Shown here: piece after piece, positions 26,860-49,935 of the stretch
Position numbering within the stretch: the first letter of the stretch is position 1
Layout of the letters: each line of letters opens with the position of its first letter
From: an uncultured Candidatus Saccharibacteria bacterium
GTDB lineage: Bacteria; Patescibacteriota; Minisyncoccia; Phycocordibacterales; UBA9973
NCBI GenBank assembly: GCA_964361705.1
Contig: CAYIBP010000001.1
Location: forward strand, 26,727 to 90,726
DNA: 64,000 nt
Reading direction: 5' to 3'
Made by a program: the position numbers and the translations under genes
The notes under the pieces: generated by a model
What the model was told of the DNA's origin: nothing
The model's database searches: none
Seen by the model: only the letters and a program-made list of their open reading frames with translations

Positions 26860-27963
26860 TTATATCCCCTCTTTCTTTAATTCCCCTATTATTTCTCTTT
26901 CTTTGCGGGAAAGTTTTTTGGGAAGTTTTATTTCAAGTTTTATTAGTAAGTCTCCGCGTTTACTCTTTGATACGGGCACGCCTCTGCCTCTGACACGCAA
27001 TATCTCGCCTATGGATACGCCTTCGGGAATCTTTACATCTATCTTGCCGTCTAGAGTTTCTATCTCGTATTCTGCGCCGAGCAGAGCATCTGTGAGCTTG
27101 AGGTCCAGATCCATCACCAAATCACTACCTTCTCTTTTAAAAACTGGATGACTCGCAACATTTATCTTTATATACAAGTCTCCTGCTGTGCCTTTTGACA
27201 CCGCTTCGCCTACACCTGTCATGCGCACCATTTCACCATTGCGAATACCAGATGGCACATTAATAGTTATTTCTTCTTGGCGACGCAAGACACCTTTGCC
27301 TTTACAAGTATCGCATTTTTCTTTTGGCACAGTACCGGAGCCCAGACACTCTTCGCAAAGCTTCGTACTTGAAATAGTACCTAGAATCGTGCGTTTTGCT
27401 TCGCGTATTTTTCCCTGGCCATTGCAATATTTGCAAGTTTCCATTTTCGTATCTTTCTTTGCTCCAGAACCACTGCAAGTCGCACAAGTCGAAGTCTTTG
27501 TTATCAAAATCTTTCTTGTTACACCAAATACAGCGTCAGCAAAAGAAATCTGTATTTCAGTAGAAACATCCCTGCCTCTTCGTTCTTGTGTCCTGCCCCC
27601 ACCCATACCGCCAGTGAAAAAATCACTAAAGATATCATTTAAATTTCCAAAATCAAATTCTGCTCCGCCATTTTGAAATCCCTGAGAAAAACCACCGAAA
27701 TCAAACCCTTCAAATCCGCCAAAGCCCTGACCTTGTCCACCTCCGCCCATGTTTGCATAGTTTGCGCCAAATTGATCGTATTTTGATCTCTTGCCGTCAT
27801 CAGAAAGAGTTTGGTACGCCTCATTTACTTCTTTAAATTTTTTTTCATCTCCTTCTTTTTTGTCGGGATGATATTTGTGCGCCATTTTATAGAACGCTTT
27901 TTTTATTTCGTCTTTCGATGCGCCCTTATTTACACCTAAAATTTCATAGTAATCCTTGCTCAT
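26860..27963 (-). CDS. dnaJ: chaperone DnaJ
   Basis: J domain with HPD (DYYEILGV...[11 protein letters not shown]), G/F-rich linker, four CxxCxGxG zinc-finger repeats, and C-terminal substrate-binding domains. ATG at 27961-27963 chosen over the upstream GTG listed in the ORF track. Confidence 0.9.
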
Positions 27964-27970
27964 ACGCACA

Positions 27971-29437
27971 CTATATCATAGGTTCGGCTTCTTGTGAAAT
28001 TGCTTTCTGTATTTTTTCTTCATTAGAATCTTTGCCTTTGTTGGTGATAGCGGCCTTTTCTTCCGCGCTTCGGATGATAGTAGATTCTTCTTCCTCAATC
28101 AATTTCTTGGCATCTCCTCTTGATATGGCAAACTTTTTGCGTGAAGCCGCGATGATTTCTGCTTTGTATGAAGGATGCGTTGGTGGCAATATGCGCAGAG
28201 TCTCGGCAGAAAATGGATCATAACTTTCTCCATCTATTGTCATTTTTATATATATTTCCCCCACTGCCAGATTGATCATATCCTTCACACCGAAAAGCGG
28301 ATCGAATTCTGGTTTTAGTTTTACAGCGTCCTCCCCCCCCACACGAAATGAAATAATACTTCCAGTATTTCCTAGCACCGCCTGATATATTTTCGGATTT
28401 ATTTGGCCGACATATTGGTGCGCCATGGTCAGATTGAGTCCGTATTTTCGCGCCTCTGACAAAATGTTTTCAAATGTTTGCGTCACGACATTTTGAAACT
28501 CATCAACATATATGTAAAAATCAACACGATCTTTCTCTGGAATATTGGCACGCTCCATACCCGCCTGTTTTATCTTGGTCAAGAACATAGATCCAAAGAA
28601 AGAAGAATTTTCTTCACCTATGCGTCCTTTAGAAAGATTGATAAAGATTATTTTCTTCTCGTTCATCAACTTGCTTATGTCTATGCGGTTTTCCTTTTGC
28701 CCGAAAATATTTCGAAGCAATGGATCAGATAAAAACTGCCCGAGTTTGTTGACGAGCGGTATGATAGCGTCCGTGTCGAACTTTTCAGACCAATCGGCGA
28801 ATTCGATAGCGAAGAATCTTTTCACCATATCGTCTTGGATGTACTCCACCACTTTCTGTCTGTAATTTCTATCCGTCAACATCGAAATCATTCCACGCAT
28901 AGTGGCGTATGGGTAGTCTAGGAGCGCCAGACAAGTAAAACGAAAAACGTGCTCCAAACGCGGAGTCCAGTTGGCACCGAATTGCTTTTGCAAAACTTCG
29001 ATCAAACCCTGCGTCAATTGGAATTTGAACTGCGGATCGACATTCGACAGTGGGTTGAATGATGCGGGATATTCTGTGTCAGATGGATCAATAATGCACA
29101 CATCTTCAATGCGTTCTTTGGGTATATAATCAAGCATTGCCTCTATCACATCACCGTGCGGGTCGATAAGACAAAGACCGTGCCCATAAGTCACATCTTG
29201 ACGAAGCATCAGCTCGAGGAGCTTGGTCTTGCCGACACCAGACTTGCCTATGATATACAAGTGCCTGCGTCTGTCCACGCGCTTGATACCGAAAATAAAT
29301 TTCTTTTCTTCAAGAGCCGCGACATAATTGGTACGCCCGATAAAAGAAACCTCTTCAGGCTTGACCTTGCCAAAAACAGGTAGCTCTGGCGGAGGCGGAC
29401 CGTATTTTATTATCTGCACTCGATTGGGCTTAGACAT
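27971..29437 (-). CDS. soluble P-loop ATPase of the FtsK/HerA/VirD4-TraD (T4CP-like, AAA_10/DUF87-type) superfamily, paralog 1
   Basis: Walker [12 protein letters not shown], Walker [11 protein letters not shown]-terminal TMAHQY...[16 protein letters not shown] block resembling T4 coupling proteins. No TM helices. Stop lies 7 nt from the dnaJ start. Confidence 0.6.
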
Positions 29438-29442
29438 AAATT

Positions 29443-29736
29443 TTAAGAAAACTGCCTCATAAATTTATAAGAAAAAGGTTCTGCGTATTTTTCCAAAATA
29501 TTTCTCTCGTATTTATCCAATTTATCATATCCTAAGATAAAATTCTTGATCACGCTCCATTCTTCCCTGCCCGCTGGTTTGATGTCTCTAAAAGTCAAAA
29601 TCTGATCAACAATACCTAAAGCGCGTGTTTTAGCATTATTAGCAGCTTCTATTTTTTTTGAATCAAAAAAAGAAAAAAGTCTTCCTATTTCAGGATGCAA
29701 ATTTGCCATATAAAAAAGAGAATCTTTCTCAATCAT
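29443..29736 (-). CDS. hypothetical protein
   Basis: 97 aa ORF. 4-nt overlap with upstream ORF and 5-nt spacing to the ATPase suggest an operon. No recognisable motifs. Confidence 0.35.
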   Translation of the reverse strand: MIEKDSLFYMANLHPEIGRLFSFFDSKKIEAANNAKTRALGIVDQILTFRDIKPAGREEWSVIKNFILGYDKLDKYERNILEKYAEPFSYKFMRQFS

Positions 29737-30089
29737 TTCAAATCAATATATTTATGAATAACTTTAGTTCCTTTTTTTATTACTTCCTGATTATCAATAG
29801 ACCGTGTTCTGTTGCCTTGATTCGGTTTAATATTCACCATCGAGTCAAATTCTAAAACACCATCAGGGTTTTCTTCAAAACGAATATTAAAACCCCAAAT
29901 ATTTTCAAATTTTGATCCTGTACTGGTTAGAAGTTCAGAACTTTCAATATGATAATCTCCCCCCAATGCTACCCTTTCTAGTTCTATGTCAACGGTTCCT
30001 TTTATCATCGTGCTATACCAAAATAGGGCCATTTTTTTAACTTCATCTATTGAAACCTTGTGATCTAAAACAATTATCTGTCCGTTCAT
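29733..30089 (-). CDS. hypothetical protein
   Basis: 118 aa ORF, first gene of the apparent 30089->26860 reverse-strand transcription unit ending in dnaJ. No recognisable motifs. Confidence 0.4.
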   Translation of the reverse strand: MNGQIIVLDHKVSIDEVKKMALFWYSTMIKGTVDIELERVALGGDYHIESSELLTSTGSKFENIWGFNIRFEENPDGVLEFDSMVNIKPNQGNRTRSIDNQEVIKKGTKVIHKYIDLK

Positions 30090-30136
30090 ATATAGATGTA
30101 TTTTAACACAAAATCAGGAAGCGCGCTTGCAGGATA

Positions 30137-30186
30137 ATACCAAAGGTGCCCTTTCGCACCACAGTGCGAAAGGGCACCTTTGGTAT
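30137..30186. promoter_or_regulatory. perfect 23-bp-stem hairpin/palindrome ATACCAAAGGTGCCCTTTCGCAC-caca-GTGCGAAAGGGCACCTTTGGTAT
   Basis: Read directly; followed by a 10-bp direct repeat of cctttggtat. Lies between the stop of the GC-rich ORF 30324-30899 and the start of ORF 29733-30089, so it could be a terminator, an operator, or both. Confidence 0.5.
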
Positions 30187-30323
30187 CCTTTGGTATGTCT
30201 TAGTAAATTCTAGTACTTTTGCTTTTCAAAACCATCAAGAAAATCTTGATAACTTTGAAAAGCATAAGAGAAATGAACATTCCTGTTCAAATCTCCTAGC
30301 TTTGATGGTGATGCCCTCCAACA

Positions 30324-30899
30324 TCACTTTTTGGATGAATCGGGCAGAGATCCTACCTTTTCGTCGAATTCTTGAAGCTGAAGCTCAAGGTTAGTTTTTC
30401 CCCTTATAGCTCTTTCCTTCCTTCCCAAAATCTCGATTTGGGCTTCGAGATGTTTTTCTCTCATCCGCAAAAAAGGTTTGTTGTCTTCAACAACCGATTT
30501 TCTCACCTTGTCGACAACAAAAGAGGTGTCCACGGTGGTAGCTTCAGCTTGGGGAGCTGGAGATTCGACTTGAGGGAGCGGAGCTACCGTGGTCAAAGCA
30601 GAGGTGTCGGGAAGGGCTTCGGCTTGGGGGACCGGAGAGAACGTCGAGTCGTGGGAGACCGAGGCTTTGGGGGTCAGAACCTCCTGCGTGGCAAGATTGG
30701 CCCAAAACTGCGGGCAATCCATGGTTCTGCACCATCCTTGGTGAGAGCCATGAGGTGTCGGATTCTGTTCGAATGGGTAGGCCGAGGTGGGCAGGGCGAT
30801 GGAAGAGATTTCGCGTTTCTTTGTCACGGCAAAGAAAAGCAAAGAAAACGCGAGAGCTACCATTCCAATCACTACCCAGAGTAGGGGGTTTTTCCTCAT
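30324..30899 (-). CDS. signal-anchored Pro/Ala/Thr-rich protein with C-terminal coiled coil (GC-rich ORF)
   Basis: N-terminal TM helix (LLWVVIGMVALAFSLLFFAV); repetitive PQAEA-containing linker; coiled-coil tail. About 50% GC, against ~33% background. The overlapping +strand ORF 30372-30884 is Gly/Arg low-complexity and judged less likely. Confidence 0.45.
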   Translation of the reverse strand: MRKNPLLWVVIGMVALAFSLLFFAVTKKREISSIALPTSAYPFEQNPTPHGSHQGWCRTMDCPQFWANLATQEVLTPKASVSHDSTFSPVPQAEALPDTSALTTVAPLPQVESPAPQAEATTVDTSFVVDKVRKSVVEDNKPFLRMREKHLEAQIEILGRKERAIRGKTNLELQLQEFDEKVGSLPDSSKK

Positions 30900-31074
30900 A
30901 AAATTTCTCCTAAAAAGATGGTTTGAAAAAGTTCTGAAACATTGATTAACGCGCTCTTTGCACGAAGCTTAGATTACAAAGAGCGATATGTTTGTAATAT
31001 AGCACACATCTAAGGTAAAAGTCAATAGCTGTAAACCCTTGTAAAATAAGGATTTTAGGGGTATATTTGGGTTT

Positions 31075-31770
31075 ATGAGATTACATAGGTTTATTGGGGA
31101 GTTTGATTTATCTAAAAGTGAGATCGAGATAAAAGACTCGGAAATCATAAAACAGGTCAGAAATGTCTTGCGTTTGAACGTAGGTGATTTTTTAATACTT
31201 TCAGATGGCAAAGGTATGGAAAAAGAAACCACGATCACTTCCCTATCTAAAGAAAACATAATAGTTGAGGTAATAAAAGATATACCTTTAAATGAACCAA
31301 CCAAAAAAGTCAGCTTGTATTTGGCAGTATTGAAGAAAGAAAATTTTGAGCTAGCTGTACAAAAAGCTGTCGAGTGCGGAGTGTCAGAAATAATTCCCAT
31401 CATCACAGAACGCACAGTAAAAACTGGTTTGAATAAAACTCGTTTAGAAAAAATAATAAAAGAGTCCTGCGAACAATCTGGTCGAGGGATACTTCCCCAC
31501 CTTTCTGAAACTATATCTTTCGACGACGCACTACAAGACGGCACGAAAAACGAAGAGAGGGTAGTTTTTCATTTTGTTGATAAACAATATGAATCAAAAA
31601 AGAATACAACAAACGCAAGTATTTTCATCGGTCCTGAAGGTGGTTTTACCGAACATGAAATATCTCTGACTAAAGATACCGGCTATACTGTTACCTCTTT
31701 AGGATCCCTCACCCTCCGCGCTGAGACAGCCGCGATGATAAGCACATACAGAGTAGTACAGAATATATAA
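31075..31770 (+). CDS. rsmE: 16S rRNA (uracil1498-N3)-methyltransferase
   Basis: MRLHRFIGEF N-terminus (PUA-like) and C-terminal SPOUT knot motifs (FIGPEGGFTEHEI...SLGSLTLRAETAAM). Confidence 0.85.
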   Translation: MRLHRFIGEFDLSKSEIEIKDSEIIKQVRNVLRLNVGDFLILSDGKGMEKETTITSLSKENIIVEVIKDIPLNEPTKKVSLYLAVLKKENFELAVQKAVECGVSEIIPIITERTVKTGLNKTRLEKIIKESCEQSGRGILPHLSETISFDDALQDGTKNEERVVFHFVDKQYESKKNTTNASIFIGPEGGFTEHEISLTKDTGYTVTSLGSLTLRAETAAMISTYRVVQNI

Positions 31771-31851
31771 ACACGAAAAACCGTCGAGTACATAATGACA
31801 GCTATAGCGTCTATTATGTTATTATCATTTTAGTTTAAAATCTAATATCTT

Positions 31852-33522
31852 CTAATAAACCTCCTGTTGGTAACAACTCTCGCAGTACACTATCTCTTTG
31901 TTCTCTGGTGAATAATTTGTATTTATTTCCTTTTTGCATTTATCACACTGTCGCTTCCAGAATTTATATGGTCCACGAATATTTATCCTTTCTTTATGTC
32001 TGCAATAAAAACATTTGCGCGGAATAGGCAGGATCATCTTTCTGTAAAACAAGAATTCTTGCGCTGTAATTTTATAATTCCTCTTGCAATCTATACAGGC
32101 AAGTACTTCAGCCAAAATACCATCCGTCACATCTTTTATATGGTCTGGTATTTGTTCTGATTGCACTGTTTCTTTGCCTTCCGTTTTCTGCAGATCATCC
32201 TCCCATCTAAAACCTTGCGCCAGCACTTCTTCTTTTGTCATCGGCATATTGTCCTGCCCTATCGTTTCATTATAAGCAAAGGGAGCAAGATCTGGGGGCA
32301 TCATTAAGCCATATAGATTTTTTGATTTTAATTCTTGTATGATTAGATTTTTTAACTTTTCATATTCTTCCTTGCTGTATTCTTTGTTGAATATGGCATA
32401 TTTAGTGTTTTTAAGCGCATCACATCCTACACAATCTTGGCAATTTGTAGTGTAAAAACAGTAAAGCATATTATTGCCATGCTCAAGACCATAAGAACCT
32501 ATAATATTGCTCGAATGCCCCACTGCCACTACTTCGAGCAATCTTTCGCAGGAGGTACCATAGCCTATGGTACCATAAGAATCTTTAATTTCTTTTGAAG
32601 AAAATAAATATCGGCAATCCTCACCTCTTGCCACCTCGAAAGAATCTTTGACGTTTTTACAGTTAAAAAGATAATCTCCAGAGGAATCTATACTTTTTGG
32701 ATCATTATTTTCTTTTACTGGATATTTCAAACATAAATCTTTAAACTCTTTTTTAAAAGATTTCGTTTTTGAGAAACTTCCTTGTATTTCTTTGACTTTG
32801 TTCCAGTATTCTTCTTGGGTATATGGTTCATTTAGAAAGTGATAAGACTTATTGTTTAAATTTACACAACCAAAGCAATTCATCACTCCCCTGCAATTTT
32901 GGACAAAAGCGCTATCCACCGATCCAAAAACATTTTTTCCCCATAGAATGCCCGAAGATTCTTGAACATTGACACTTTCATAACATCGTTCGGTTTTTGT
33001 GGCAAAATACATATCCGAACAATCCTTGATATCTTTCGCTCCTCTAGTATAGAGAGTTTCTTCGGCAGGCCCGGTATTGAAAACGAGATAGCAATTCTTG
33101 CATCCGCCTGCCATATTCGTATATTCGCTGTTTTGATTTGGTCCGTATCCAGAAGAAAGATATGTGGTGATCTTCGGTACTTTTATCAAAAATTCTTTCA
33201 TCTGCTCTAAAAAAGAATGGCTTGGGTCATAATCCATGGCGTAATCTTTTGGATCCCATTTGTCGGAATAAAAACATTCGTGACAATATATCTTGTAAGG
33301 AGATTTTGGATTGTACATCGATATTATGCTCTTGTCGCATAAATCACAACGTCTGCCTGAATAAAGAGTGGTTTCGTTTCTCCACAGCGCACGCATTTTA
33401 AATCTGCAAGACGGACAAACCTTTGGGTTCGGCACTTGCATCTTTTCATAAAAAGAAATTTCGTCCTGATCTAGAAAAAAATCAGTGAGGCATTTAGTGC
33501 ATTTTTTCGTTTCTGTACGCAT
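31852..33522 (-). CDS. cysteine-rich multi-zinc-ribbon protein, novel family, paralog A
   Basis: 556 aa, >45 Cys, no signal peptide. N-terminal module CxxC...FYEKMQVPNPKVCPSCR...RCDLCDKS...YCHECF. C-terminal module of the same pattern (CIDCKRNY...FYRKMILPIPRKCFYCR...QCDKCKKE...YCESCYQQEVY). Internal repeats C-x2-C-x-G-C...Y-x-KEEY. Paralogous to 35576-37288, 37255-39012 and 41611-43377. Confidence 0.6.
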   Translation of the reverse strand: MRTETKKCTKCLTDFFLDQDEISFYEKMQVPNPKVCPSCRFKMRALWRNETTLYSGRRCDLCDKSIISMYNPKSPYKIYCHECFYSDKWDPKDYAMDYDPSHSFLEQMKEFLIKVPKITTYLSSGYGPNQNSEYTNMAGGCKNCYLVFNTGPAEETLYTRGAKDIKDCSDMYFATKTERCYESVNVQESSGILWGKNVFGSVDSAFVQNCRGVMNCFGCVNLNNKSYHFLNEPYTQEEYWNKVKEIQGSFSKTKSFKKEFKDLCLKYPVKENNDPKSIDSSGDYLFNCKNVKDSFEVARGEDCRYLFSSKEIKDSYGTIGYGTSCERLLEVVAVGHSSNIIGSYGLEHGNNMLYCFYTTNCQDCVGCDALKNTKYAIFNKEYSKEEYEKLKNLIIQELKSKNLYGLMMPPDLAPFAYNETIGQDNMPMTKEEVLAQGFRWEDDLQKTEGKETVQSEQIPDHIKDVTDGILAEVLACIDCKRNYKITAQEFLFYRKMILPIPRKCFYCRHKERINIRGPYKFWKRQCDKCKKEINTNYSPENKEIVYCESCYQQEVY

Positions 33523-33526
33523 AATT

Positions 33527-35536
33527 TTATTCCAATATCTTTCTCAGCACATCTTCAGGCACTTCTTTTATTTTTGTCTTGGGTGTTTCTTCTTCTTTTA
33601 TTTCTTCTTTTTTTATATTTTTAGATTCTATAAAACTTTTCAATTTATCCATATCTTCTGCGCTCGCTGCGCGATCTTTTGATGATTTTTCTTTTTTAAT
33701 TATACTAGGTGCTTGTTCTTCTTTTAAAATACTCAGGGGCACGGGTGCATGCACAGCAGGTCTCACAAGGGTAACGAGGTCAGACTTTTTTTCTACTTCC
33801 TCTGATTTTACCTTTGATTCTTCTGCGATAGTTTTATTTAAAATATCCCTTAGAGCTGGGTTGCCATTTTCTGTACGAGCTATTTTTAGTTTGTTACCAG
33901 TAAACACCTTCTTCATTCTTGAAAATACACCCTCTCGCACAGGCGCTATATTCCTCGTCGTACTGTCTCTTTCTTCTTCTTTCTTGGGCTCGAATTCTAT
34001 ACCCAGATCGGCCAGTGGTTTATAAAACTTAGCATCATCTCTTTTGTTTTCTCTTGAAAAACCCGTAGCGACTTTTAATTCCCCTGTCTTTATTTTATCC
34101 ATACAATCCTTACAATACACAGGCCTGCCTGGCGTAGGCTTGAAAGGCACTGTGGTTTCTTTTTTGCAATTAGAACAAATGATCGGGAATTTCTCTCCGG
34201 TCATATTATCTCCATCATTGCCTAGAGACATTCCGCTCCAATCATTGATCTCTTGCTCCACTACTTCTCTTGGTCTGCAATACAGCGCGCGCGAAGACCT
34301 AATCACTTCTTGTTCTATCTCCTTGTTACCCGACTTTACTAAAGGCGATAAGGTCTTGGCTGAAAAAGGTCTCGATGTCGTACCATCAATCATAAGCTTC
34401 AAATAAATTTTGAAATTCGGTAAGTTTAAAATATCTTGCGGTGTGAATTCTGGCTCAAATTCTTTTTCCAAAAACTTTGCATCATCAGCGCCGACTCTGA
34501 AAACAATCATCGTGCCCACGTTGCCAAATACTGCATCTCGAACACTAGAATTCTTATCAGCTATCAACTGTGCCGTGTACTGATGGGCCACAGTCAAATT
34601 GAGTCTATATTTTCGAGCTTCAGACAAAATACCTGCAAAAGACTCCGTAACGAAATTTTGGAATTCATCAACATATAGATAGAAATCTTTTCTCTCGTCT
34701 TCGGGTATGCGCACACGTTCCATAGCGGCGAGCTGAATCTTGGTAATTATCATTCCCCCTAAAAGCGAAGAATTGTCTTCACCTATGCGCCCTTTTGATA
34801 CATTTACAAGAAATATTTTTTCTTGATTCATTAAATCAAAAATATCCACTGTGCTTTTAGCCTGACCAACGATATTTCTGATGATAGAGGTAGAAAGAAA
34901 CTGCCCAACTTTGTTTTGTATCGGCGCAATGGCTTCATTTCTAAATTTATCCTGCCAAGCTTCGTATTCGTGAATCCAGAATGCTTTAATAACAGGGTCC
35001 TTCAAGTTTGCTATTACCTTTTGACGATAATCTTTATCCACCAAGAGCCTCGGTATACCGAGCAATGTCGAACCTGGAGTATCAAGCAGTGCCAAGATAG
35101 CATTGTTCAAAATATATTCCATTCTGGCGCTCCAAGCATTTGCCCAAATCTTTGTGAAAATACCCATCAAACCCGAAGCTACGAGATGTTTATATTTTGG
35201 ATCCAAAAGTTCGAGAACATTAAAACCTATATGATACTCCGTATCAGCAGGATTGAAATACACCACATCTTTCATTCGATGTGGAGGAATAGCCGAGAGT
35301 ACTGCTTCGACATTTTCTCCGTGAGGATCAACCATACACACACCATCGCCATTTTCGATGTTCTGAATAATCATGTTGAACATCAGGGCGGATTTACCTG
35401 TACCGGATTTTCCAAGTATGTACACATGCTGACGGCGATCTTTACGCTTTATGCCAAAGAGAGTATTCTTGTCCCTATAAGTAGTCTGACCTACATAAGT
35501 AATCTCTTTATTTTTTGGGATTCCCAAGAGTTCCAT
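33527..35536 (-). CDS. soluble FtsK/HerA/VirD4-TraD-like P-loop ATPase, paralog 2, with C-terminal zinc ribbon and K/E-rich tail
   Basis: Walker A ILGKSGTGKSA, Walker B YLYVDEFQNF, LTVAHQY...GNVGTMIVFRVGADDA block. Extra C-terminal CSNCKKETTVPFKPTPGRPVYCKDC zinc ribbon followed by a ~200 aa lysine/glutamate-rich tail. No TM helices. Confidence 0.6.
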   Translation of the reverse strand: MELLGIPKNKEITYVGQTTYRDKNTLFGIKRKDRRQHVYILGKSGTGKSALMFNMIIQNIENGDGVCMVDPHGENVEAVLSAIPPHRMKDVVYFNPADTEYHIGFNVLELLDPKYKHLVASGLMGIFTKIWANAWSARMEYILNNAILALLDTPGSTLLGIPRLLVDKDYRQKVIANLKDPVIKAFWIHEYEAWQDKFRNEAIAPIQNKVGQFLSTSIIRNIVGQAKSTVDIFDLMNQEKIFLVNVSKGRIGEDNSSLLGGMIITKIQLAAMERVRIPEDERKDFYLYVDEFQNFVTESFAGILSEARKYRLNLTVAHQYTAQLIADKNSSVRDAVFGNVGTMIVFRVGADDAKFLEKEFEPEFTPQDILNLPNFKIYLKLMIDGTTSRPFSAKTLSPLVKSGNKEIEQEVIRSSRALYCRPREVVEQEINDWSGMSLGNDGDNMTGEKFPIICSNCKKETTVPFKPTPGRPVYCKDCMDKIKTGELKVATGFSRENKRDDAKFYKPLADLGIEFEPKKEEERDSTTRNIAPVREGVFSRMKKVFTGNKLKIARTENGNPALRDILNKTIAEESKVKSEEVEKKSDLVTLVRPAVHAPVPLSILKEEQAPSIIKKEKSSKDRAASAEDMDKLKSFIESKNIKKEEIKEEETPKTKIKEVPEDVLRKILE

Positions 35537-35575
35537 ATGTGTATATTATACAAGAAAAACAAGCTTTTACCATAT

Positions 35576-37288
35576 TTAGTATATTTCCTTCTGATAGCAA
35601 CTTTCACAATACACTATTTCTGGTCTATCTAGTGAATATGAGGTTTCAAATTCGTTAGAGCACCTTTCCTTCATGCATTTCCGATGCCATAGTTTTAAAG
35701 GATTGCGCGATTTCATCCTCCTATCATTCCGGCAGAAAAAACAATTCCTAGGCAAAGGTACCTGCATTCTCTTATAAAAAAGCAATTCTTGATTTGTAAT
35801 CTTAAAATTACGATCACAAGACCCACAAACCAGAACTTCGTTTATAATGTCTTCCACAACATCATTGATATCATCTGGTATGTTTTCTTGTGACATCGTT
35901 TCTTTGCCTACGGTACGTTTGAAATCATTCTGCCATTTCAAGCCACGAGCCTCTGCCTCGCTCTGTGTAAGAGGAAACATTGAGAGGGCCTCTGTTTCGT
36001 TGTAATTAAAATAAGACATTCGAGCGGGGAAAAATTCTCCCCACTCTTTTGTTTTTTTCATTAGCTCAATGATCTCATTTTTTAGTTTAAAATATTCTTC
36101 TTTTGTGTATCTTTTATTCAAAATTACATACTCTCCTTTTTTGACACTCGCACATCCAAAGATATTGTTGCACGAATGGCAATTGTCACAATAAGCAATA
36201 TCTTTATCCTTCCATGAATAAATACTAAAAAGATTATTATAAGATTGGTCTGGTGTTGCCGCCTCATAAGAATATTCCACCTCTCCACCACCGGACAAAT
36301 CGTAACAATCCTTAAACTTTACACCATTGTAGACGAATCTTGATTCCTCGCTAAACGGGGCAAAGAAAGAATCTCTGGTGTGTTTTGCCTCTATCAGATC
36401 ATTCCCCGTACAATTCAGACAATTACGAAACATCGCAAACCGACGCGGATATTTTAAAATAAATTCCTTAAACTCCTTCTCAGCCCTCTGCCAACCAGTA
36501 AAAGTATTCAAGGCGTAAGATTTCAAAATATCTTCATACTCTTCCTTGCTGTATTGTTTGTTACGAAAATAATATCTCTTGCTTCTCAAGCCAAAAGACA
36601 TAAAACAATCGCTACAATCACGACAGTCATAACAAAAATCACAGTTTTGTAGCGAATTACCATATATCACATATCTGCACTTATAACACTTATCAATCAA
36701 AATTGACTCGTACATGAATTCATTAAAATCATAAGCACCAAGACAATCGCACAGTTCCCTGCCCTCATTTAGAAAACAAGAATACATCACGCTCTCTAAT
36801 TTCCAAGAAATAAAAGTCATGTAACAATTTTTAGAAAATGCAACATCGTGACAATAAGGACTATTCATACTGGAAATACCATCATCGTTCATCAGGGCGA
36901 TCTTTGGCACTTTGTGATTTAGTTCCATGTACTGTTCAAAAAAAGATTTGTTCGGATCAAAATCCTGTCCGTATTTGTATGGATCCCAGTTGTCGTTCCA
37001 GAAACACTTGACGCAATAAACGACCAAATCAGAGTCAGGTTTGTAAATAGAAAGAGTGCTCTTGCCACACAGATCGCACGAACGATTGTACAGATTGTAT
37101 GTATTCCTCCAAGCCAACCTGCGTTGACTTCTACAATCTGGACAAAAAGTCGGGGGTGGCACTTTGATTTTTTCATAAAACCCAAAATCGTCAGATTCTA
37201 TAGTGAAATCTTTTTTACAGTTTTGACAATTGCGGGTTTCGGATTGCATATATTTTAATATACCTCTTTTTTGTAACAATCTTCGCAA
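35576..37288 (-). CDS. cysteine-rich multi-zinc-ribbon protein, novel family, paralog B
   Basis: 570 aa, same architecture as paralog A: N-term CQNCKKDF...FYEKIKVPPPTFCPDCRSQRR...CDLCGKS...YCVKCF; C-term CGSCDRNFKI...FYKRMQVPLPRNCFFCR...CSNEFETSYS...VYCESCYQKEIY. Confidence 0.6.
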   Translation of the reverse strand: MRRLLQKRGILKYMQSETRNCQNCKKDFTIESDDFGFYEKIKVPPPTFCPDCRSQRRLAWRNTYNLYNRSCDLCGKSTLSIYKPDSDLVVYCVKCFWNDNWDPYKYGQDFDPNKSFFEQYMELNHKVPKIALMNDDGISSMNSPYCHDVAFSKNCYMTFISWKLESVMYSCFLNEGRELCDCLGAYDFNEFMYESILIDKCYKCRYVIYGNSLQNCDFCYDCRDCSDCFMSFGLRSKRYYFRNKQYSKEEYEDILKSYALNTFTGWQRAEKEFKEFILKYPRRFAMFRNCLNCTGNDLIEAKHTRDSFFAPFSEESRFVYNGVKFKDCYDLSGGGEVEYSYEAATPDQSYNNLFSIYSWKDKDIAYCDNCHSCNNIFGCASVKKGEYVILNKRYTKEEYFKLKNEIIELMKKTKEWGEFFPARMSYFNYNETEALSMFPLTQSEAEARGLKWQNDFKRTVGKETMSQENIPDDINDVVEDIINEVLVCGSCDRNFKITNQELLFYKRMQVPLPRNCFFCRNDRRMKSRNPLKLWHRKCMKERCSNEFETSYSLDRPEIVYCESCYQKEIY

Positions 37289-39012
37289 TAAAGCATGTTA
37301 TACCCTTCTTCTAGGTTAAACACAGACTCTATCTTTTTATTGCATTTTTTACAAGAAGTCTGATATTTTTTGGCAGTCAAAAACATGGCGAGTTCTTCTT
37401 GCATGCGTATCATCGGATGCGTGTCCGGTAGCGGAATTTTCATTTTTCTTAGAAATTGAAGTTCAGATTGGATAATCCTAAACGGTCTGCCTGTGACTTT
37501 ACACTCTATGGCTTTTTCCACAATATCATCATTCACATCATCTATATATTTTGGTATATCTGCATTCGTCAGTATTTGTTCGTTTGATATATTGGTTTCT
37601 GGCTCCTCGGCTATATAACCACCTAGTTTTATAATTTGTTCCTCACTCAAAGGGAAAACAATTTGGCTCAATGAAAAATTGTATGCTTGAGCAGAAAATT
37701 CCATACCTAAACCATCGCCATACTCGCCTATCTTTAACATTTCATATTTAATTTTATCCAGTAGTTTATAATATTCTTCTGCAGAATATTGTTTATTCAA
37801 AATACAATAGGATTTATCCCTTAAACCAAAACACATAAAACAATTGCTCAAATTACTGCAATTAAAAACAAATTCGCAATCAAGAAGTATTTTTGAATGT
37901 GAAGAAAATTTCACATTGCTGGAATGATTGCCAGTATTTATAGTGCTATACAACAAACTGGAATGCCCTCCAGAAAACAGCGTATCCATAGAATCATTCA
38001 GAAAAAAACTTCCATCTATATGCCGTACATTTTCTGTGTCTTTTGAAGCAGTAGCATCAAAAATATTTTTAGCATCTCTGAGCAACACACCATTACAATT
38101 TTCTATGTTTGTATTAGCAGAAGCATTTATTGGCGAAGATTTAACGAGCAACCAAAATTTATCTTCCATATCTTTTATTTTCTCTCGCGACAGAGGATAA
38201 ATGGATTTGATAAAATCTTTGTATTCTTTTTCCGAAAGTTGTTTATTCCAAACACAATATTTCGCATTTCTAAGGTTCACTGAACCAAAACACTTGTCAC
38301 AGTTTCGACATCCAAATAAAAATATACTATCTGTGCAATCTTTTGAAAAATAAACAAAAGAAGATTTATAAATATGATCAGAATAAACACTACCATAAAC
38401 ATGATCAGATTCATCTATAACTCTGGAATCCATGCCGTCTTTGACTTTATTCATTGAATTGCAATACCAAAGATTTTCAGAAAAAAAGCAACCTGTCACA
38501 TAATAACCATTCTTTAGGTTTCTACCGCCATTTGAATATTCACTATTTATTGTCGAAGGATCTTTGTTTAGAAAAGATGGCATGGGAAAAACTTTTCGAA
38601 GCGCAAAAAGTATAGCCAAAGGACTTGCGCCGTCCTTGTACTCCAAGCCAAAAGAAAAAGCATCGAAACTATCACCCATAAAATATTTATAATCATAAAC
38701 AGGAAAAGGACACTCTTTCGGAAATATAGATATCATTGATTCGTTGTGGTTAGATACATTGCAAGATCTTTTAAAAAGTCGGGAGCTATCTTTTTGTGTT
38801 AATCTTCTGATTCTCCTACAAGTAGGACAAAAGTTTGGAGCTGGAACTCGAAGCATTTTTAAAAATTCTATATCGCCTTTTGATATTTCAAACTCTCCCT
38901 CGCAGTGTATATGCAAACCCGCCCATCTGCAAACACGAGAGTGAGGAGTAAGATTTGCCAAAATTTCGTCTAGCAACTTATCAAATCTGGGTGTTTTTGA
39001 CACTGATTGCAT
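37255..39012 (-). CDS. cysteine-rich multi-zinc-ribbon protein, novel family, paralog C (most divergent)
   Basis: 585 aa; internal CRNCDKCFG...KEY and CSNLSNCFMCFGLRDKSYCILNKQYSAEEY repeats; C-terminal ...KKCNKKIESVFNLEEGYNMLYCEDCYKKEVY. N-terminal module degenerate (HxxC...CPTCRR). Confidence 0.55.
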   Translation of the reverse strand: MQSVSKTPRFDKLLDEILANLTPHSRVCRWAGLHIHCEGEFEISKGDIEFLKMLRVPAPNFCPTCRRIRRLTQKDSSRLFKRSCNVSNHNESMISIFPKECPFPVYDYKYFMGDSFDAFSFGLEYKDGASPLAILFALRKVFPMPSFLNKDPSTINSEYSNGGRNLKNGYYVTGCFFSENLWYCNSMNKVKDGMDSRVIDESDHVYGSVYSDHIYKSSFVYFSKDCTDSIFLFGCRNCDKCFGSVNLRNAKYCVWNKQLSEKEYKDFIKSIYPLSREKIKDMEDKFWLLVKSSPINASANTNIENCNGVLLRDAKNIFDATASKDTENVRHIDGSFFLNDSMDTLFSGGHSSLLYSTINTGNHSSNVKFSSHSKILLDCEFVFNCSNLSNCFMCFGLRDKSYCILNKQYSAEEYYKLLDKIKYEMLKIGEYGDGLGMEFSAQAYNFSLSQIVFPLSEEQIIKLGGYIAEEPETNISNEQILTNADIPKYIDDVNDDIVEKAIECKVTGRPFRIIQSELQFLRKMKIPLPDTHPMIRMQEELAMFLTAKKYQTSCKKCNKKIESVFNLEEGYNMLYCEDCYKKEVY

Positions 39013-39024
39013 AAAGATATCATA

Positions 39025-39057
39025 GCAAAAAACCTCGTAAATTACGAGGTTTTTTGC
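39025..39057. terminator. intrinsic terminator hairpin gcaaaaaaCCTCGTaaattACGAGGttttttgc downstream of dnaK
   Basis: Perfect 14-bp stem (including A/T extensions) with T-run, read from sequence. Lies between the dnaK stop (39073) and the start of Cys-rich paralog C (39012) on the reverse strand. Confidence 0.55.
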
Positions 39058-39072
39058 TGAAGTTTGAGATTT

Positions 39073-40977
39073 TTATTTTTTATCCTCCCCTTCTTTAAAT
39101 TCCACATCGTGAACTTCTGGTGGTTGTTCTTCGGCAGTAGTCCCCGTATTAGGATTTGCCTGTCCTGCTTCAGCATTAGCTTTCTGCATGGCTTCGCCTA
39201 TTTTTGACATTTCAGCAGAAAGCTCTTCGGTTGCTTTCTTTATTTTCTCTCCATCAGTACCATCTTTTACTTCTTTCAAACCAGCGATCTTTTTATTCAC
39301 ATTTTCTTTTACATCTGCTGGAAGTTTTGCCTCATTGTCTTTTAGAGCTTTCTCCGCAGTGTACATCATCATCTCTGCAGTATTTTTCACATCAACCAAC
39401 TCTCTCTTTTTCTTGTCTTCCTCTGCGTGAACCTCTGCATCTTGCTGCATTTTCTTTATATCTTCATCTTTGAGTCCAGAGCTTGCCTCTATTCTGATAG
39501 ATTGAGTTTTACCGGAAGCTTTTTCCATGGCTTTCACATTCAATATTCCATTTGCATCTATGTCAAAAGTTACTTCGACTTGAGGCATACCACGTGGAGC
39601 AGGTGGTACACCGTCTAGCACAAAGCGACCGAGGGATTTGTTGTCGGACGCCATTGGACGCTCACCTTGAACTACGTGTATCTCTACAGAAGTCTGATTG
39701 TCTGCGGCGGTAGAAAATACTTGAGATTTTGAAGCAGGGATTGTAGTATTTTTTTCTATCAACTTTGTAGCCACACCTCCCAATGTCTCAATACCCATAG
39801 ATAGAGGTATGACATCCAAGAGCAAGACATCTCGTACATCTCCTGCTAGCACTCCACCCTGGACAGCCGCGCCGAGCGCCACGACTTCGTCTGGGTTGAT
39901 AGACATATTTGGTGTTTTACCAAAAAGATTTTTCACAGCTTCCACCATCATCGGCATTCTGGTCTGACCTCCGACCATGATGATCTCGTTTATTTCATTC
40001 ATTTTGAAAGGAGAAGCTTCCACAGCTCTCTTTGTAATCTCAATAGATCTATCCACGAATTCTTTTGCCAAAGATTCCAATGTCGCGCGAGACATCTTGA
40101 GTAACAAGTGCTTTGGCCCTTCGGCATCAGAAGTAATAAAAGGAATATTTACTTCCGCTTCCATCGTGGTAGAGAGTTCATGTTTCGCCTTTTCAGCTGC
40201 TTCTTTCAGTCTCTGTAATGCGAGTGAATCTTTACGCACATCCACGCCTGATTCCTTTTTGTACTCATCTGCTATCCAATCAATGATCTTGCTATCTATG
40301 TCTTCACCACCCATATGACTGTCGCCATCAGTAGATTTTACTTCGATTACATCTTCTCCTATTTCAAGCACCGACACATCGAATGTTCCACCACCGAAGT
40401 CATATACCACAATCTTTTCATTTTTCTTTTTATTAAAACCATAGGCAAGCGCTGCCGCGGTAGGCTCGTTTATTATTCTCTTTACATCAAGACCGGCTAT
40501 TTGTCCGGCATCTTTTGTCGCCTTTCTTTGCGCGTCGTTGAAATACGCAGGCACAGTGATCACCGCTTCGGTAATCTTAACACCAAGCTTTGCTTCTACA
40601 TCAGCTTTTATTTTCTGCAAGATCATCGCGGAAACTTCTTCAGGACGATAAAACTTGTCGAGCATTTTTACTTTTACACCACCATCTTCACCCGCTTCTA
40701 TTTCGTAAGGAGCGCTCCCTTTGTCTTTTTGAACTCCTGGATCGCTGAACAGATGACCCATAAAACGCTTGATGCCGTAAATGGTATTTTTAGGATTCGT
40801 GACTGCTTGCCTCTTTGCCACTTGTCCCACCACACGACCTCCGCTTTTTGTAATAGCAACTATCGAAGGCGTGGTCCTGTTGCCCTCGACATTTTCAATA
40901 ATCTTTGGCGCGCCACCCTCAATGATAGACACCGCCGAATTTGTTGTACCCAAATCTATTCCTATTATTTTACTCAT
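39073..40977 (-). CDS. dnaK: chaperone DnaK (Hsp70)
   Basis: [33 protein letters not shown] motifs and C-terminal lid with EEVD-like acidic tail. Confidence 0.95.
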
Positions 40978-41017
40978 ATTCTTAATATATTATTAATAAT
41001 GCTTGATAATTAAAGAT

Positions 41018-41053
41018 TTAGCAGGCTTTTCGCGGTCGCAAAAAACTTGCTAA
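41018..41053. promoter_or_regulatory. imperfect CIRCE-like palindrome TTAGCAggcttttcgc-ggtc-gcaaaaaacTTGCTAA in dnaK upstream/divergent promoter region
   Basis: Outer half-sites TTAGCA / TGCTAA match CIRCE half-sites (TTAGCACTC-N9-GAGTGCTAA), but spacer and inner arms differ. Located 41-76 bp upstream of the dnaK start. Confidence 0.35.
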
Positions 41054-41080
41054 AAACAGTATATATGATAAGATATCCAC

Positions 41081-41614
41081 ATGTCAAGCAAATCTGGATA
41101 TTCCAGTAAAATACTTAAAATATTGGCTGAAAAACCGGCACTTTCTCTGGAAGCTGTAAAAGAAAACTCGAACAAAAAAGACAAAAGAGAAGAGTATTCT
41201 TTAAACAGATCTGTCAAAAGTCTCACTGAAGCCGGCTGTGTTGAAATAATACGCTCAGAACACAAGGATTATTTACGACTCACTAAAAAAGGAAAAAATA
41301 GATTGAATAGTTTGCGTATCGGAGACACAGATGCCTTGGTACCACAAACTTGGGATGGGTTTTGGCGAATTGTGATATTGGATTTACCCGAAGACAGAAA
41401 AAACGAACGCGAATCTTTGCGATACCTTTTGAAAAAAGCAAACTTCGTTTGTGTGAAAAATACTGTTTGGATTTCGCCACACCCATACGAACATCTTTTT
41501 ACAAATATAAAAAAAGATTTAGGACTCTCTACAGAAATGATGATAATAACGACAAACAACCTAGATGAAGAAACTCATAAAGCATTCCTCAAAGAGATAG
41601 GTGGGCAATCTTAA
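41081..41614 (+). CDS. uncharacterised winged-helix + Cas2/VapD-like fold protein (paralog of 4789-5349)
   Basis: 177 aa; WDGFWRIVILDLPEDRKNERESLRYLLKKANFVCVKNTVWISPHP aligns with the C-terminal block of 4789-5349. Divergently transcribed from dnaK. Confidence 0.45.
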   Translation: MSSKSGYSSKILKILAEKPALSLEAVKENSNKKDKREEYSLNRSVKSLTEAGCVEIIRSEHKDYLRLTKKGKNRLNSLRIGDTDALVPQTWDGFWRIVILDLPEDRKNERESLRYLLKKANFVCVKNTVWISPHPYEHLFTNIKKDLGLSTEMMIITTNNLDEETHKAFLKEIGGQS

Positions 41615-43377
41615 TACACTTCCCTTTTATAACATTCTTCGCAATAAACTTTTTCGGTTCTGTCTGGAGAATACGGAGTTTCAAATTCGTTTGAGCATTT
41701 TTGATCGTGTCCGTGAGTGGTATTATCGCAAACACAAACTCTGTGCCATAAATTCCTAGGCGTGCGAAGCTTTTGTCTCTCTAAATATCTGCAATCAGGA
41801 CAAAATTCTGGTATCGGAACACTCATTCTTTTGTATAAATCGAATTCAGCTAAAACAATGTTGTAATTTTTGCTACATTTTTTGCAAGCAAGAACTTCTT
41901 TTGTTATTGTATCTGGCGTATTTGAAATACTATCAGGCAAAGTCTTTAAAGTTTCTTTACCAAAAGTACCTCCCAAATCATCTGCCCATTTAAAACCCTT
42001 CTCTAAAGTGTCTTCTTTAGTCAGTGGCATATATACATTGCCCTGCGTTTCGTTGTAACAAATAGGTGAATACTTCGGCGGGAAAAATTCTCCCCATTCG
42101 CCTGTATTCTTCATATGTTCTTTTATCTTTTGTACAAGTTTTTCATATTCTTCTTTGGTGTATTGCTTGTTGAATATACAATAAGAATTCTTTTTCAAGG
42201 CTACGCACCCGAAAAGATTTTGACCGTTGTGACAAGAATCGCAATAATACGCAAAAGTATTGTCGTAGGACAAATTGCAAGAAATCAGGTTAGATGAGCG
42301 CACTATCGCGTGAGAATTATACACGAGTTCTGTTTGTAGCCCCACATGATACACATCCATACAATCTTTTGTATCTGGAGACATCGCAGCAAAATGCACA
42401 TTTTCAGCTCGCTCTATATCAAACACCCTTTTGGAATTCTTGGAATTTAGCACAATATTGCCTGTGCAATCCACCGACTTATCTATCACAGCACACCTGT
42501 GCACCGCCTTTTGTTTTATCATATTTATATACTCCGCGTATAATTTATCTCGCGTAGCTCTGGAACCCAGATACATTTCTTCCATTTTTTTCTTATAGTC
42601 TTCTCTCGTGTATTGTTCATTATTTATACAGTAACTCTTATTGCGCAAGTTGTAACACATAAAACAATTTGAGCAATTCCTGCAATCATAAGAATAAAAA
42701 CAATCAGAACAATCCTTTAAAAACTTTCCGTACTGGCAATTGTAAAGATTCTCTCCATCTATACATTCATAACACATCGAGATATTCATAGGGTTGTAAA
42801 GGCAATCCACGCAGTCTCTGCCCTTCTCCCAAGTATTTGTACAGTAGAGCATATTTTCGCAATTGAACATGCAAAAAGACAGGTAGCAATCTTTATTGTC
42901 GCCAGCGTGATTTGTATAGTCAGAGTTAATAGTATTCTTATTGAGCAAAGCTATCCTCGGACACTCTAGTAACAGATCATAAAACTGTTCAAAAAATGGT
43001 TTTGTAAAATCAAAATCGCGCCCATAGTCAAGCGCGCTCCATTTGTCGCTCCAAAAACACGAAGTGCAAAAAACCTTAAAAGGCTTATCTGGAGAATACA
43101 CTGTCACTATAGACTTGTTGCATAAATTGCACACACCCCTATACAGCCTCCTTTCATTCCTAAAAGCATATCTGATCTGTTGCCTGCAATCAGGGCATTT
43201 GTCCGGCACCGGCACATCCATCTTTTTATAAAAAGCAAAATGATCCGGCTCGATGGTAAAGCTAGCCTTGCAACTCTGACAAGTCGCGGACACTGAGTTT
43301 GACGAATGTGTTTTAGTTTCCTGTTTCTCCATTGTATTCAAAAACATTGACGCGTGCTGGACGCAAAACTCTTTCAC
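41611..43377 (-). CDS. cysteine-rich multi-zinc-ribbon protein, novel family, paralog D
   Basis: 588 aa; N-term CQSCKASF...FYKKMDVPVPDKCPDCR...CNLCNKS...FCTSCF; C-term CKKCSKNYNI...LYKRMSVPIPEFCPDCR...CSNEFETPYS...VYCEECYKREVY. The 5' end overlaps the grpE 3' end, so the true start is probably an internal Met (MEKQETK). Confidence 0.6.
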   Translation of the reverse strand: MKEFCVQHASMFLNTMEKQETKTHSSNSVSATCQSCKASFTIEPDHFAFYKKMDVPVPDKCPDCRQQIRYAFRNERRLYRGVCNLCNKSIVTVYSPDKPFKVFCTSCFWSDKWSALDYGRDFDFTKPFFEQFYDLLLECPRIALLNKNTINSDYTNHAGDNKDCYLSFCMFNCENMLYCTNTWEKGRDCVDCLYNPMNISMCYECIDGENLYNCQYGKFLKDCSDCFYSYDCRNCSNCFMCYNLRNKSYCINNEQYTREDYKKKMEEMYLGSRATRDKLYAEYINMIKQKAVHRCAVIDKSVDCTGNIVLNSKNSKRVFDIERAENVHFAAMSPDTKDCMDVYHVGLQTELVYNSHAIVRSSNLISCNLSYDNTFAYYCDSCHNGQNLFGCVALKKNSYCIFNKQYTKEEYEKLVQKIKEHMKNTGEWGEFFPPKYSPICYNETQGNVYMPLTKEDTLEKGFKWADDLGGTFGKETLKTLPDSISNTPDTITKEVLACKKCSKNYNIVLAEFDLYKRMSVPIPEFCPDCRYLERQKLRTPRNLWHRVCVCDNTTHGHDQKCSNEFETPYSPDRTEKVYCEECYKREVY

Positions 43378-43966
43378 CCAGCTTGTAACCCTTTTGAATC
43401 ACTACGGAAATTTTATGATTGTCTTCTTGTTTATCGGTAGCAGTAATATCCATAGATTGATGAAGATTTGGATCAAAATCCTCGCCCACACGACCTATCT
43501 CTTTCACACCATATTCTTCAAAAATAGTATTGAGTTGAGAGTAAATATATTCCACTCCCTTGCGCCAATTTTGATCTACTTTTTCCCATGCTTCTTTGTT
43601 GGCAAAAGCCATATTAAAACTATCAATCACGGACAAAAATCTGGTCAACATGCGCTCACGCATAGCTTCTGAGAAGACTGCTTTTCTGTCTTCCTCTTGT
43701 TTCTTGAAATTCGCAAAATCTGCCCGCTCTTTCTGCCAACCTGTCAAATATTCTTCTTTTTCAGATTTTACCTGTTTCAGATCAGCTCGCAATTTCTTGA
43801 TAGTCTTTTTCAAGTCTTCTTCGCCGTCTTCATTGAACTCGAATTCGAGCACCTCTGTATCATCAGAAACACCAGAGGCGCCATCATCTGTTTCTTTCCC
43901 CTCTCCCGCGGGAGAAGAGCTTTGTATTTCATCGTCTGTTATTTCCTTAGAATCTTCGTCTGCCAT
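43313..43966 (-). CDS. grpE: nucleotide exchange factor GrpE
   Basis: 217 aa: acidic N-terminus, long paired helix, C-terminal beta domain (…HQSMDITATDKQEDNHKISVVIQKGYKLGERVLRPARVNV). Confidence 0.9.
   Translation of the reverse strand: MADEDSKEITDDEIQSSSPAGEGKETDDGASGVSDDTEVLEFEFNEDGEEDLKKTIKKLRADLKQVKSEKEEYLTGWQKERADFANFKKQEEDRKAVFSEAMRERMLTRFLSVIDSFNMAFANKEAWEKVDQNWRKGVEYIYSQLNTIFEEYGVKEIGRVGEDFDPNLHQSMDITATDKQEDNHKISVVIQKGYKLGERVLRPARVNVFEYNGETGN

Positions 43967-49912: not shown

Positions 49913-49935
<23 letters not shown>
47065..49935 (-). CDS. secreted multidomain surface protein A (Ig/FN3-like repeats + lipase-like alpha/beta-hydrolase domain), frameshifted near 3' end
   Basis: Signal peptide MSQLPKTKNLLSTFLLLIFILSPLQVFA. 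Lipase-like nucleophile elbow LIGHSNGGLVIKALIQKL and FVATPQVGTPEGF. Homologous to B and to the C-terminal ~1100 aa of C. ORF terminates prematurely after …VIQVGGWGGKDLGGDRLYC* owing to a +1 G in a G-run relative to B. Confidence 0.6.

Follow-up and report, generated by a model that had tools for sequence, protein, structure and literature searches.

A Patescibacteria multigene family with predicted zinc-finger modules flanking a twin cysteine-lined solenoid

Four paralogous genes and the predicted anatomy of their products

The gene at positions 31852-33522 lies in a 64,000-nucleotide stretch of DNA, the window, from an uncultured Candidatus Saccharibacteria bacterium (assembly GCA_964361705.1, contig CAYIBP010000001.1, positions 26,727 to 90,726 of the forward strand). 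It encodes a cysteine-rich protein which, together with three paralogs in the window, belongs to an unannotated multigene family whose anatomy, distribution and genomic surroundings are described here. An earlier note made from the sequence alone had indicated four paralogous open reading frames (ORFs) at this location. All four are intact on the minus strand at precisely the coordinates given there, and a family hidden Markov model (HMM) finds exactly these genes and no fifth copy in the 64-kb window. End-to-end alignment of paralogs 2-4 to paralog 1 gives 27-40% identity. The family proteins are soluble and intracellular: the absence of a signal peptide that had been noted was borne out, and transmembrane segments likewise are absent from the paralogs (maximum Kyte-Doolittle 19-mer 1.21). 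The four genes are as follows.

31852-33522, minus strand: paralog 1, the gene singled out here; 556 amino acids, 31 cysteines, all four terminal zinc sites intact
35576-37288, minus strand: paralog 2, the most canonical copy; 570 amino acids from the TTG at 37288, 35 cysteines
37255-39012, minus strand: paralog 3, member of a cysteine-depleted subfamily; 585 amino acids, 24 cysteines
41611-43377, minus strand: paralog 4, between grpE and dnaK; 588 amino acids from a GTG, 44 cysteines

The family alignment suggests that the true start of paralog 2 is likely to be the ATG at 37249, giving a protein of 557 amino acids, and the real start of paralog 4 probably is an internal ATG rather than the GTG. 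The start codon of paralog 1 is located 4 nt past the stop codon of a gene for a VirD4-like ATPase that itself bears a zinc finger. The cysteine counts, with a family median of 36, fall short of the 45-60 per protein that had been estimated. Paralog 3 is devoid of the inner site of both terminal modules, and C-x8-C replaces its first CxxC motif. As orthologs of paralog 3 exist in other genomes at 56-59% identity, the gene is not a pseudogene. The N-terminal module that had been ascribed to all four proteins is thus common to them only in a loose sense, given the two lost sites and altered first motif of paralog 3. The first spacing in the module measures C-x2-C-x3-F instead of C-x2-C-x4-F, and the tail CSNEFET[SP]YS.. 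is exact in paralogs 2 and 4 but not in the other two. The predicted domains are given below with the residue numbers of paralog 1.

33235-33522, minus strand: N-terminal double treble-clef module, residues 1-96
32821-33144, minus strand: first narrow beta-solenoid, residues ~127-234, ending in C-R-x3-N-C-F-G-C and N-K-x-Y
32722-32820, minus strand: helix after solenoid 1 (the '..EEY..' cap), residues ~235-267
32377-32721, minus strand: second beta-solenoid, a duplicate of the first, residues ~268-382
32113-32376, minus strand: SKEEY helix and conserved acidic segment, residues ~383-470
31855-32112, minus strand: C-terminal double treble-clef module, homologous to the N-terminal module, residues 471-556

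This anatomy, in which a basic treble-clef pair at each end encloses a duplicated narrow cysteine-lined beta-solenoid with helix caps and an acidic segment after the second helix, is predicted with high confidence. A canonical member very probably binds four zinc ions, as judged from the four terminal finger sites. In paralog 1, finger 1 comprises C8/C11 and C36/C39 and is zf_Tbcl-like, and finger 2 comprises C59/C62 and C80/C83 in a zf_Tbcl_2-like arrangement. The C-terminal ligands are C476/479 with C504/507, and C526/529 with C547/550. The second finger of each pair has the exact CxxC-x17-CxxC spacing (C59-x2-C62-x17-C80-x2-C83 and C526-x2-C529-x17-C547-x2-C550).

Both internal duplications that had been proposed, namely the recurrence of the N-terminal module at the C-terminus and the repeats in the center, were confirmed by hhalign comparison of sub-alignments. 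The terminal cysteine modules are homologous with a probability of 99.5% (E 1e-22, 82 columns), and the two central halves with a probability of 99.8% (E 2.5e-27, 111 columns). The repeats are visible only in these profile-profile comparisons, as BLASTP self-comparison of each paralog detected no internal repeats. The finger modules are basic with median pI values of 8.3 and 8.9, whereas the solenoids and the segment of residues 401-470 are acidic. The latter carries the motif GEFFP..SPFAYNET..FPLTKEEA..G..W and has a median net charge of -6. The extreme C-terminus also is conserved as VYCExCYxxEVY.

A first AlphaFold model, of paralog 1 with 42 sequences, attained a predicted local distance difference test (pLDDT) score of 77 and was confident at the termini only, the center scoring 55-65. 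The second, which was built for paralog 2 from 149 diverse sequences, has a pLDDT of 90.7 and a predicted template modeling (pTM) score of 0.91. In the latter model the first CxxC of each of the four sites forms a knuckle within a beta-hairpin, and the other CxxC is placed at the N-terminal end of a helix (C36/39 at helix 37-45, C79/82 at helix 80-84, C503/506 at helix 504-514 and C548/551 at helix 549-556). As the second CxxC of every site is placed on a helix rather than in a hairpin, the topology is that of a treble clef and not of the double zinc ribbons that had been envisaged; weak matches to zf_Tbcl and zf_Tbcl_2 agree with this topology. The center of the model comprises two runs of short strands at intervals of 9-12 residues (~126-232 and ~267-381). 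A helix comes after each run, and the SKEEY motif is part of the second helix.

Cysteine conservation was assessed in a 492-sequence family alignment, and the gaps between cysteines in 273 members. The four terminal CxxC...CxxC sites are present in 96%, 69%, 83% and 98% of the 492 members, and therefore the outermost fingers are nearly universal and the inner ones dispensable. A possible fifth site, a CxxCxxCxxC run that closes solenoid 1, is complete in 58% of members. The ten or more zinc sites that had been anticipated are thus reduced to four that are strongly conserved and this possible fifth. Among consecutive central cysteines that are separated by up to 30 residues, 86% of the gaps are divisible by three, with maxima at 3, 9, 12 and 6, which places the central cysteines in register with the solenoid. 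The central ladder columns are 20-60% cysteine and otherwise contain serine, valine, isoleucine, leucine, threonine or alanine; in paralog 1 five of the usual ladder cysteines are exchanged for serine, isoleucine or valine. Co-variation in the presence of central cysteines is moderate at most (maximum phi 0.56), and residues C191/194/203/206 form two CxxC motifs on successive coils whose presence is weakly coupled. Model and alignment together suggest that most central cysteines would point into the interior of a very narrow solenoid, preferred at these positions but exchangeable, and would not be obligate metal ligands.

The cysteine-lined solenoids might instead bind chains of zinc, Fe-S clusters or other metals and so function in storage, buffering, redox sensing or electron transfer, with the fingers as purely structural elements. 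The 24-50 cysteines per protein, the CxxCxxCxxC run, the modest co-variation of C191/194/203/206 (phi 0.36-0.56) and a weak match to Fer4_12 (E 0.058) are in keeping with metal handling. However, most central columns exchange cysteine with other residues in the manner of core-packing positions, and paralogs 1 and 3 are devoid of many central cysteines, yet their orthologs are conserved. Moreover, there is neither a ferredoxin-type CxxCxxCxxxCP motif nor a Pfam Fe-S family above threshold. Metal handling is therefore considered improbable, and obligate multi-metal ladders were dropped as the principal interpretation in light of the phi values. A ferredoxin-type 4Fe-4S domain also was rejected, as the CxxCxxCxxC run is not followed by proline and Fer4_12 scores 14 bits against a cut-off of 22.

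Relation to known domains and distribution of the family

Searches of Pfam, NCBIfam, PADLOC and PDB sequences produced no full-length or central match, in agreement with the contention of the earlier note that the combination corresponds to no described family. The central ~370 residues match nothing in Pfam or NCBIfam, and none of the four paralogs matches any family among the PADLOC defense models. Public annotations of homologs are confined to 'hypothetical' or a generic 'Trm112 family' label, and no description of the family or of the whole architecture was found in the literature. The novelty lies in the protein family and its architecture; the building blocks are familiar fold types.

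The terminal fingers show subthreshold similarity to curated families. The zf_Tbcl model (PF13451) scores 16.4-17.5 bits on the window proteins against a cut-off of 24. It matches 13 of 42 family members at E≤0.01, the best at 1.4e-5, and one homolog bears a precomputed PF13451 match. The zf_Tbcl_2 model (PF23477) gives scores of 20.2, 20.0 and 17.3 bits against a cut-off of 27, and TIGR04272, a CxxC-x17-CxxC domain, gives 16.5-18.9 bits against a cut-off of 36; paralog 3 is unmatched in both cases. A Pfam scan of the 42 members returned the same two families, zf_Tbcl and zf_Tbcl_2, and no others of note. Fingers 1 and 3 probably are zf_Tbcl domains, whereas fingers 2 and 4 are, on sequence grounds, relatives of zf_Tbcl_2/TIGR04272 at the domain level. 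Fingers 2 and 4 share with these families the CxxC-x17-CxxC spacing and a ..P..P..VYC..C signature, and the model shows treble-clef topology. However, the window proteins score below the curated cut-offs, and the family finger always is preceded by a zf_Tbcl-like finger and flanks a solenoid core of ~370 amino acids that is missing from the known family. The CxxC-x17-CxxC type of domain has been shown to bind zinc in small proteins of Methanosarcina mazei (PMC12704099).

Profile searches of the PDB yielded weak LIM-like matches to the last finger only (E 5e-4 to 4e-3) and no match for the acidic segment (residues 398-472). LIM proteins such as CRP1/CRP2 and PINCH resemble the family in combining two consecutive treble-clef-type zinc fingers as one module, and the last finger of the family is weakly similar in sequence (W-H/K-x-x-C ... 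YC-x2-CY). However, the match spans ~35-45 residues of a single finger, the ligands of the family are all cysteines, and its fingers are ~18 residues apart compared to two in LIM, a eukaryotic protein-protein interaction module that has no solenoid. A LIM assignment, for which the pattern C-x2-C-x16-23-H-x2-C-x2-C-x2-C-x16-21-C-x2-C/H/D and a significant HMM match would be expected, was rejected as Pfam LIM models do not match, the inter-finger spacing differs and only one finger is weakly matched. A DnaJ-type finger was rejected also, as neither a PF00684 match nor the CxxCxGxG motif is present, whereas the window's own DnaJ matches PF00684 at 1.5e-14. No family-specific repeat motif or close structural match was found to Tenebrio molitor antifreeze protein (TmAFP), curli, hexapeptide-repeat left-handed beta-helix enzymes or pentapeptide proteins. 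The family solenoid resembles TmAFP (1ezg) and curli CsgA (8c50) in fold class only: these narrow cysteine-rich solenoids also have short coils of ~9-12 residues with inward cysteines stacked in register. In contrast to the family, which is cytoplasmic and has no TCT motif, TmAFP is a secreted protein with disulfide bonds and a TCT face that binds ice, and CsgA is a secreted amyloid subunit.

A protein search returned more than 6,219 significant matches, and those listed are all full length. An exhaustive HMM search identified 5,130 clusters at 50% identity, including 2,176 at E≤1e-30; the best 150 clusters are 520-600 amino acids in length and nearly all are matched end to end. In data with one genome per species, at least 565 genome loci encode a relative. 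Among the 80 loci listed, 79 are from metagenome-assembled genomes (MAGs) of Patescibacteria or from unclassified bacteria; the lineages represented include Paceibacterota, Nomura-, Lipton-, Jorgensen-, Staskawicz- and Sungbacteria. The remaining locus is on a contig of 2.6 kb that was assigned to Ignavibacteria (L073, JBHEKU010000072.1), probably as a result of misbinning and not because the family truly extends beyond Patescibacteria. The family thus is seen almost only in MAGs of Patescibacteria (Paceibacteria/Parcubacteria). It is essentially absent from 2.9 million viral contigs, in which there was one marginal match at a contig end, and a phage origin was rejected on this basis.

Family genes commonly occur in arrays. 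At least two copies are present in 60 of 84 family-anchored loci, the densest of which holds nine copies in 13.6 kb. Adjacent family genes are co-directional in 122 of 122 pairs with a median gap of 23 bp. In JALLOO010000001.1 (positions 1-28410), at least 16 family genes are arranged in a row on one strand, nine in one locus and seven in another (L069 and L023), an extreme tandem expansion for a reduced genome. The window paralogs are 52-68% identical to proteins of other genomes compared to 27-40% for co-resident paralogs. As the closer relatives reside in other genomes, the paralogs represent old, maintained subfamilies and not recent amplifications. There are 211 intact copies versus 19 internal fragments, which correspond to ~10 disrupted copies. 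Certain copies at seven loci (L007, L037, L042, L098, L100, L117 and L118) are split into two or three consecutive ORFs that may be frameshifts, pseudogenes or assembly errors, and hint at birth-and-death turnover in the arrays.

Association with VirD4-like ATPases and possible function

Two genes for VirD4-like ATPases are interspersed with the family genes in the window.

33527-35536, minus strand: VirD4/TraD-like P-loop ATPase with a finger, 669 amino acids, between paralogs 2 and 1; candidate partner
27971-29437, minus strand: second VirD4/TraD-like ATPase, 488 amino acids, just upstream of dnaJ; candidate partner

The larger ATPase possesses a bona fide zf_Tbcl_2 finger at residues 449-482 (E 3.8e-14 to PF23477) and a long tail that is rich in lysine and glutamate. 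In hhalign comparisons this finger matches family finger 2 (95.9%, E 5.4e-9) and finger 4 (94.8%, E 5.5e-8). The orthogroup of the smaller ATPase is unusually conserved with 74-87% identity across relatives. Neither window ATPase has a transmembrane anchor and both are soluble; only generic HerA/mad8 P-loop models in PADLOC match them. In metagenomes of the candidate phyla radiation (CPR), VirD4-like ATPases often occur as tandem pairs, many with a finger.

When the genes flanking the arrays were clustered, an ATPase resembling type IV coupling proteins (T4CP) was the sole recurrent direct neighbor, accounting for 20 of 155 flanking genes at 15 loci. The other clusters were small or reflected clade-specific synteny (PaaX-like, GrpE and RsmE). 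Compared to approximately two ATPase genes in a genome of several hundred genes, 20 of 155 would amount to a large enrichment, an estimate that is uncorrected for phylogeny. An ATPase of this kind is found within 6 kb in 27 of the 84 family-anchored loci. Conversely, when 80 metagenome loci were anchored on the ATPases, 24 proved to contain family genes, which at 16 loci are no more than 500 bp away, and these loci include divergent ATPases that are 47-54% identical to either window copy. Family genes are positioned between the two ATPase genes in the window and in L089, L090, L105 and L107, whereas L088 has the bare order dnaK > ATPase-zf > ATPase > dnaJ with no family gene inserted. The association of the family with the two orphan soluble VirD4-like ATPases is non-random. 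CPR genomes carry ~2 VirD4-like genes each that are almost never near virB4 (148 of 5,713 genes), and exaptation has been raised as a possibility (10.1101/2025.01.22.634366). The recurrent adjacency of the genes, and the numerous family genes compared to roughly two ATPases per genome, recall VirD4/TraD coupling proteins with their substrates or adaptors, in which one receptor has many clients. The window proteins differ in that the ATPases have no membrane anchor, CPR VirD4-like genes rarely are near virB4, and there is neither a relaxase nor a known type IV secretion system (T4SS) signal; synteny is the sole basis on which the relationship is inferred.

The explanation that is favored tentatively is that the genes constitute an unannotated Patescibacteria multigene family whose products, zinc-finger-capped twin solenoids, act as a binding scaffold or adaptor. 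The functional component, a rigid zinc-stabilized scaffold or adaptor, is itself possible but doubtful, and the explanation as a whole is rated above it as the anatomy is much firmer. The basic finger pairs would serve as common handles that dock onto a shared partner, most plausibly the orphan soluble VirD4-like ATPase pair and/or nucleic acid. The less conserved solenoid surfaces would confer a separate specificity on each old paralog, such that many adaptors or clients might serve one ATP-driven motor. An unlikely extension is that the family and the two membrane-less ATPases form a Paceibacteria-specific ATP-driven machine that was not recognized previously, in which a heteromeric motor exapted from the coupling protein is supplied by dozens of adaptors, each with a ligand of its own (DNA, RNA or protein). 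If true, this would be a major lineage-defining cellular system that occupies several percent of a minimal genome.

Several points weigh against the scaffold or adaptor explanation. An ATPase gene is missing from the surrounding 6 kb in roughly two thirds of family loci, and so most copies are not physically linked to one. The loci are phylogenetically non-independent and the counts are uncorrected for kinship, and the adjacency of genes carries little weight where genomes are tiny and dense in operons. The embedding of the window clade's genes among grpE, dnaK and dnaJ could point to proteostasis instead. Furthermore, the central cysteine clusters, such as C209/212/215/218, which 58% of members have in full, and C191/194/203/206, which co-vary weakly, could be functional sites and not packing, as AlphaFold models no metals.

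The same synteny might be read as a secretion route, in which VirD4-like homologs would recognize the terminal modules and pass the paralogs as effectors or cargo to the patescibacterial T4SS for delivery to a host. This proposal could accommodate the genomic link to T4CP-like ATPases, the many-paralogs-to-one-ATPase pattern and the conserved extreme C-terminus, and T4SS are widespread in CPR (10.1101/2025.01.22.634366). However, the missing transmembrane anchor and the scarcity of nearby virB4 genes noted above argue against secretion. Zinc-locked fingers and a rigid solenoid would be poor substrates for a process that depends on unfolding, and the paralogs are old conserved subfamilies instead of fast-evolving effectors. 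Secretion is judged to be as improbable as metal handling.

Homologous modules at both termini, along with high copy number and operon-like arrays, could also signify a structural polymer akin to bactofilin, in which end modules pair head to tail to produce filaments or lattices and paralogs co-polymerize. Nevertheless, the pTM of 0.91 denotes a compact, fixed domain arrangement within one chain whose termini are not free to pair, no HMM of bactofilin or another polymer family matches, and the link to the ATPases is left unexplained. Polymerization accordingly appears quite improbable.

The chaperone genes provide the setting for a further alternative. The grpE, dnaK and dnaJ genes of the window are spread over 17 kb (26860-43966, minus strand), interleaved on the same strand with the four family genes, the two ATPase genes, a DUF5674 gene and small ORFs. 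In the window and its relatives the genes follow the order grpE > family > dnaK > (family) > ATPase-zf > family > ATPase > dnaJ, closely spaced and all in the same orientation. The proteins might thus be zinc-finger co-chaperones or client adaptors that act with DnaK, DnaJ and GrpE, with the ATPases as a hexameric unfoldase. However, the chaperone linkage appears only where the dnaK, dnaJ and grpE products are 65-85% identical to those of the window, other arrays are situated among tRNA-synthetase, ribosomal and other genes, and the family has no DnaJ-type motif or HMM match. General linkage to DnaK was therefore downgraded to clade-specific synteny, and a proteostasis role is highly improbable.

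Least credible of all are selfish cassettes that spread by co-directional insertion into housekeeping operons: family genes interrupt conserved operons (L088 versus L089, L090 and L105), copy number varies and disrupted copies accompany the intact ones, but no nuclease, integrase or transposase domain was matched, a repeat search around the genes revealed only paralogous coding similarity and no flanking terminal repeats, which led to rejection of the idea, and the near absence from viral contigs and the ancient divergence of paralogs with conserved orthologs also argue against it.

Although CPR/Patescibacteria have some of the smallest genomes known, certain of these genomes contain at least 16 consecutive genes of ~1.7 kb for members of this one family, which makes up over 5,000 clusters at 50% identity and for which no name, Pfam model, solved relative or paper was found. 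The combination of domains, the size that the family attains in minimal genomes and its link to ATPases all are undescribed in the literature as far as could be found. Structure prediction gives the family a defined anatomy and synteny ties it to the orphan CPR VirD4-like ATPases. Together they convert a 'hypothetical protein' into testable hypotheses concerning metal content, ATPase binding and nucleic-acid binding. The family could also be useful as a marker of the lineage, and merits definition as a new domain family.

Other features of the window

A gene for a PaaX-like protein with a winged helix and a Cas2-like PaaX_M domain (41081-41614, plus strand) is located just upstream of dnaK on the opposite strand. 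Its position is conserved in about 12 related loci, and the protein may regulate the chaperone and family operon. The DUF5674 gene is at 29733-30089. DUF5674 recurs beside family genes or ATPases in L019, L056, L065 and L097, among them distant cases at 35-38% identity. An inverted repeat with perfect arms of 23 bp and a loop of 4 nt (30137-30186) is situated between the DUF5674 gene and the next ORF, and probably is a terminator or regulatory hairpin. ARAGORN found no tRNA genes in the whole window. Three large paralogous proteins with LCAT-like alpha/beta-hydrolase (lipase) domains are encoded on the minus strand at 47065-49935, 50351-53293 and 54663-61766, one of which, of 2,367 amino acids, also has subtilase S8 and PKD domains. 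A gene for an IS200-like Y1 transposase (53436-54110) is placed between two of the LCAT-like genes.

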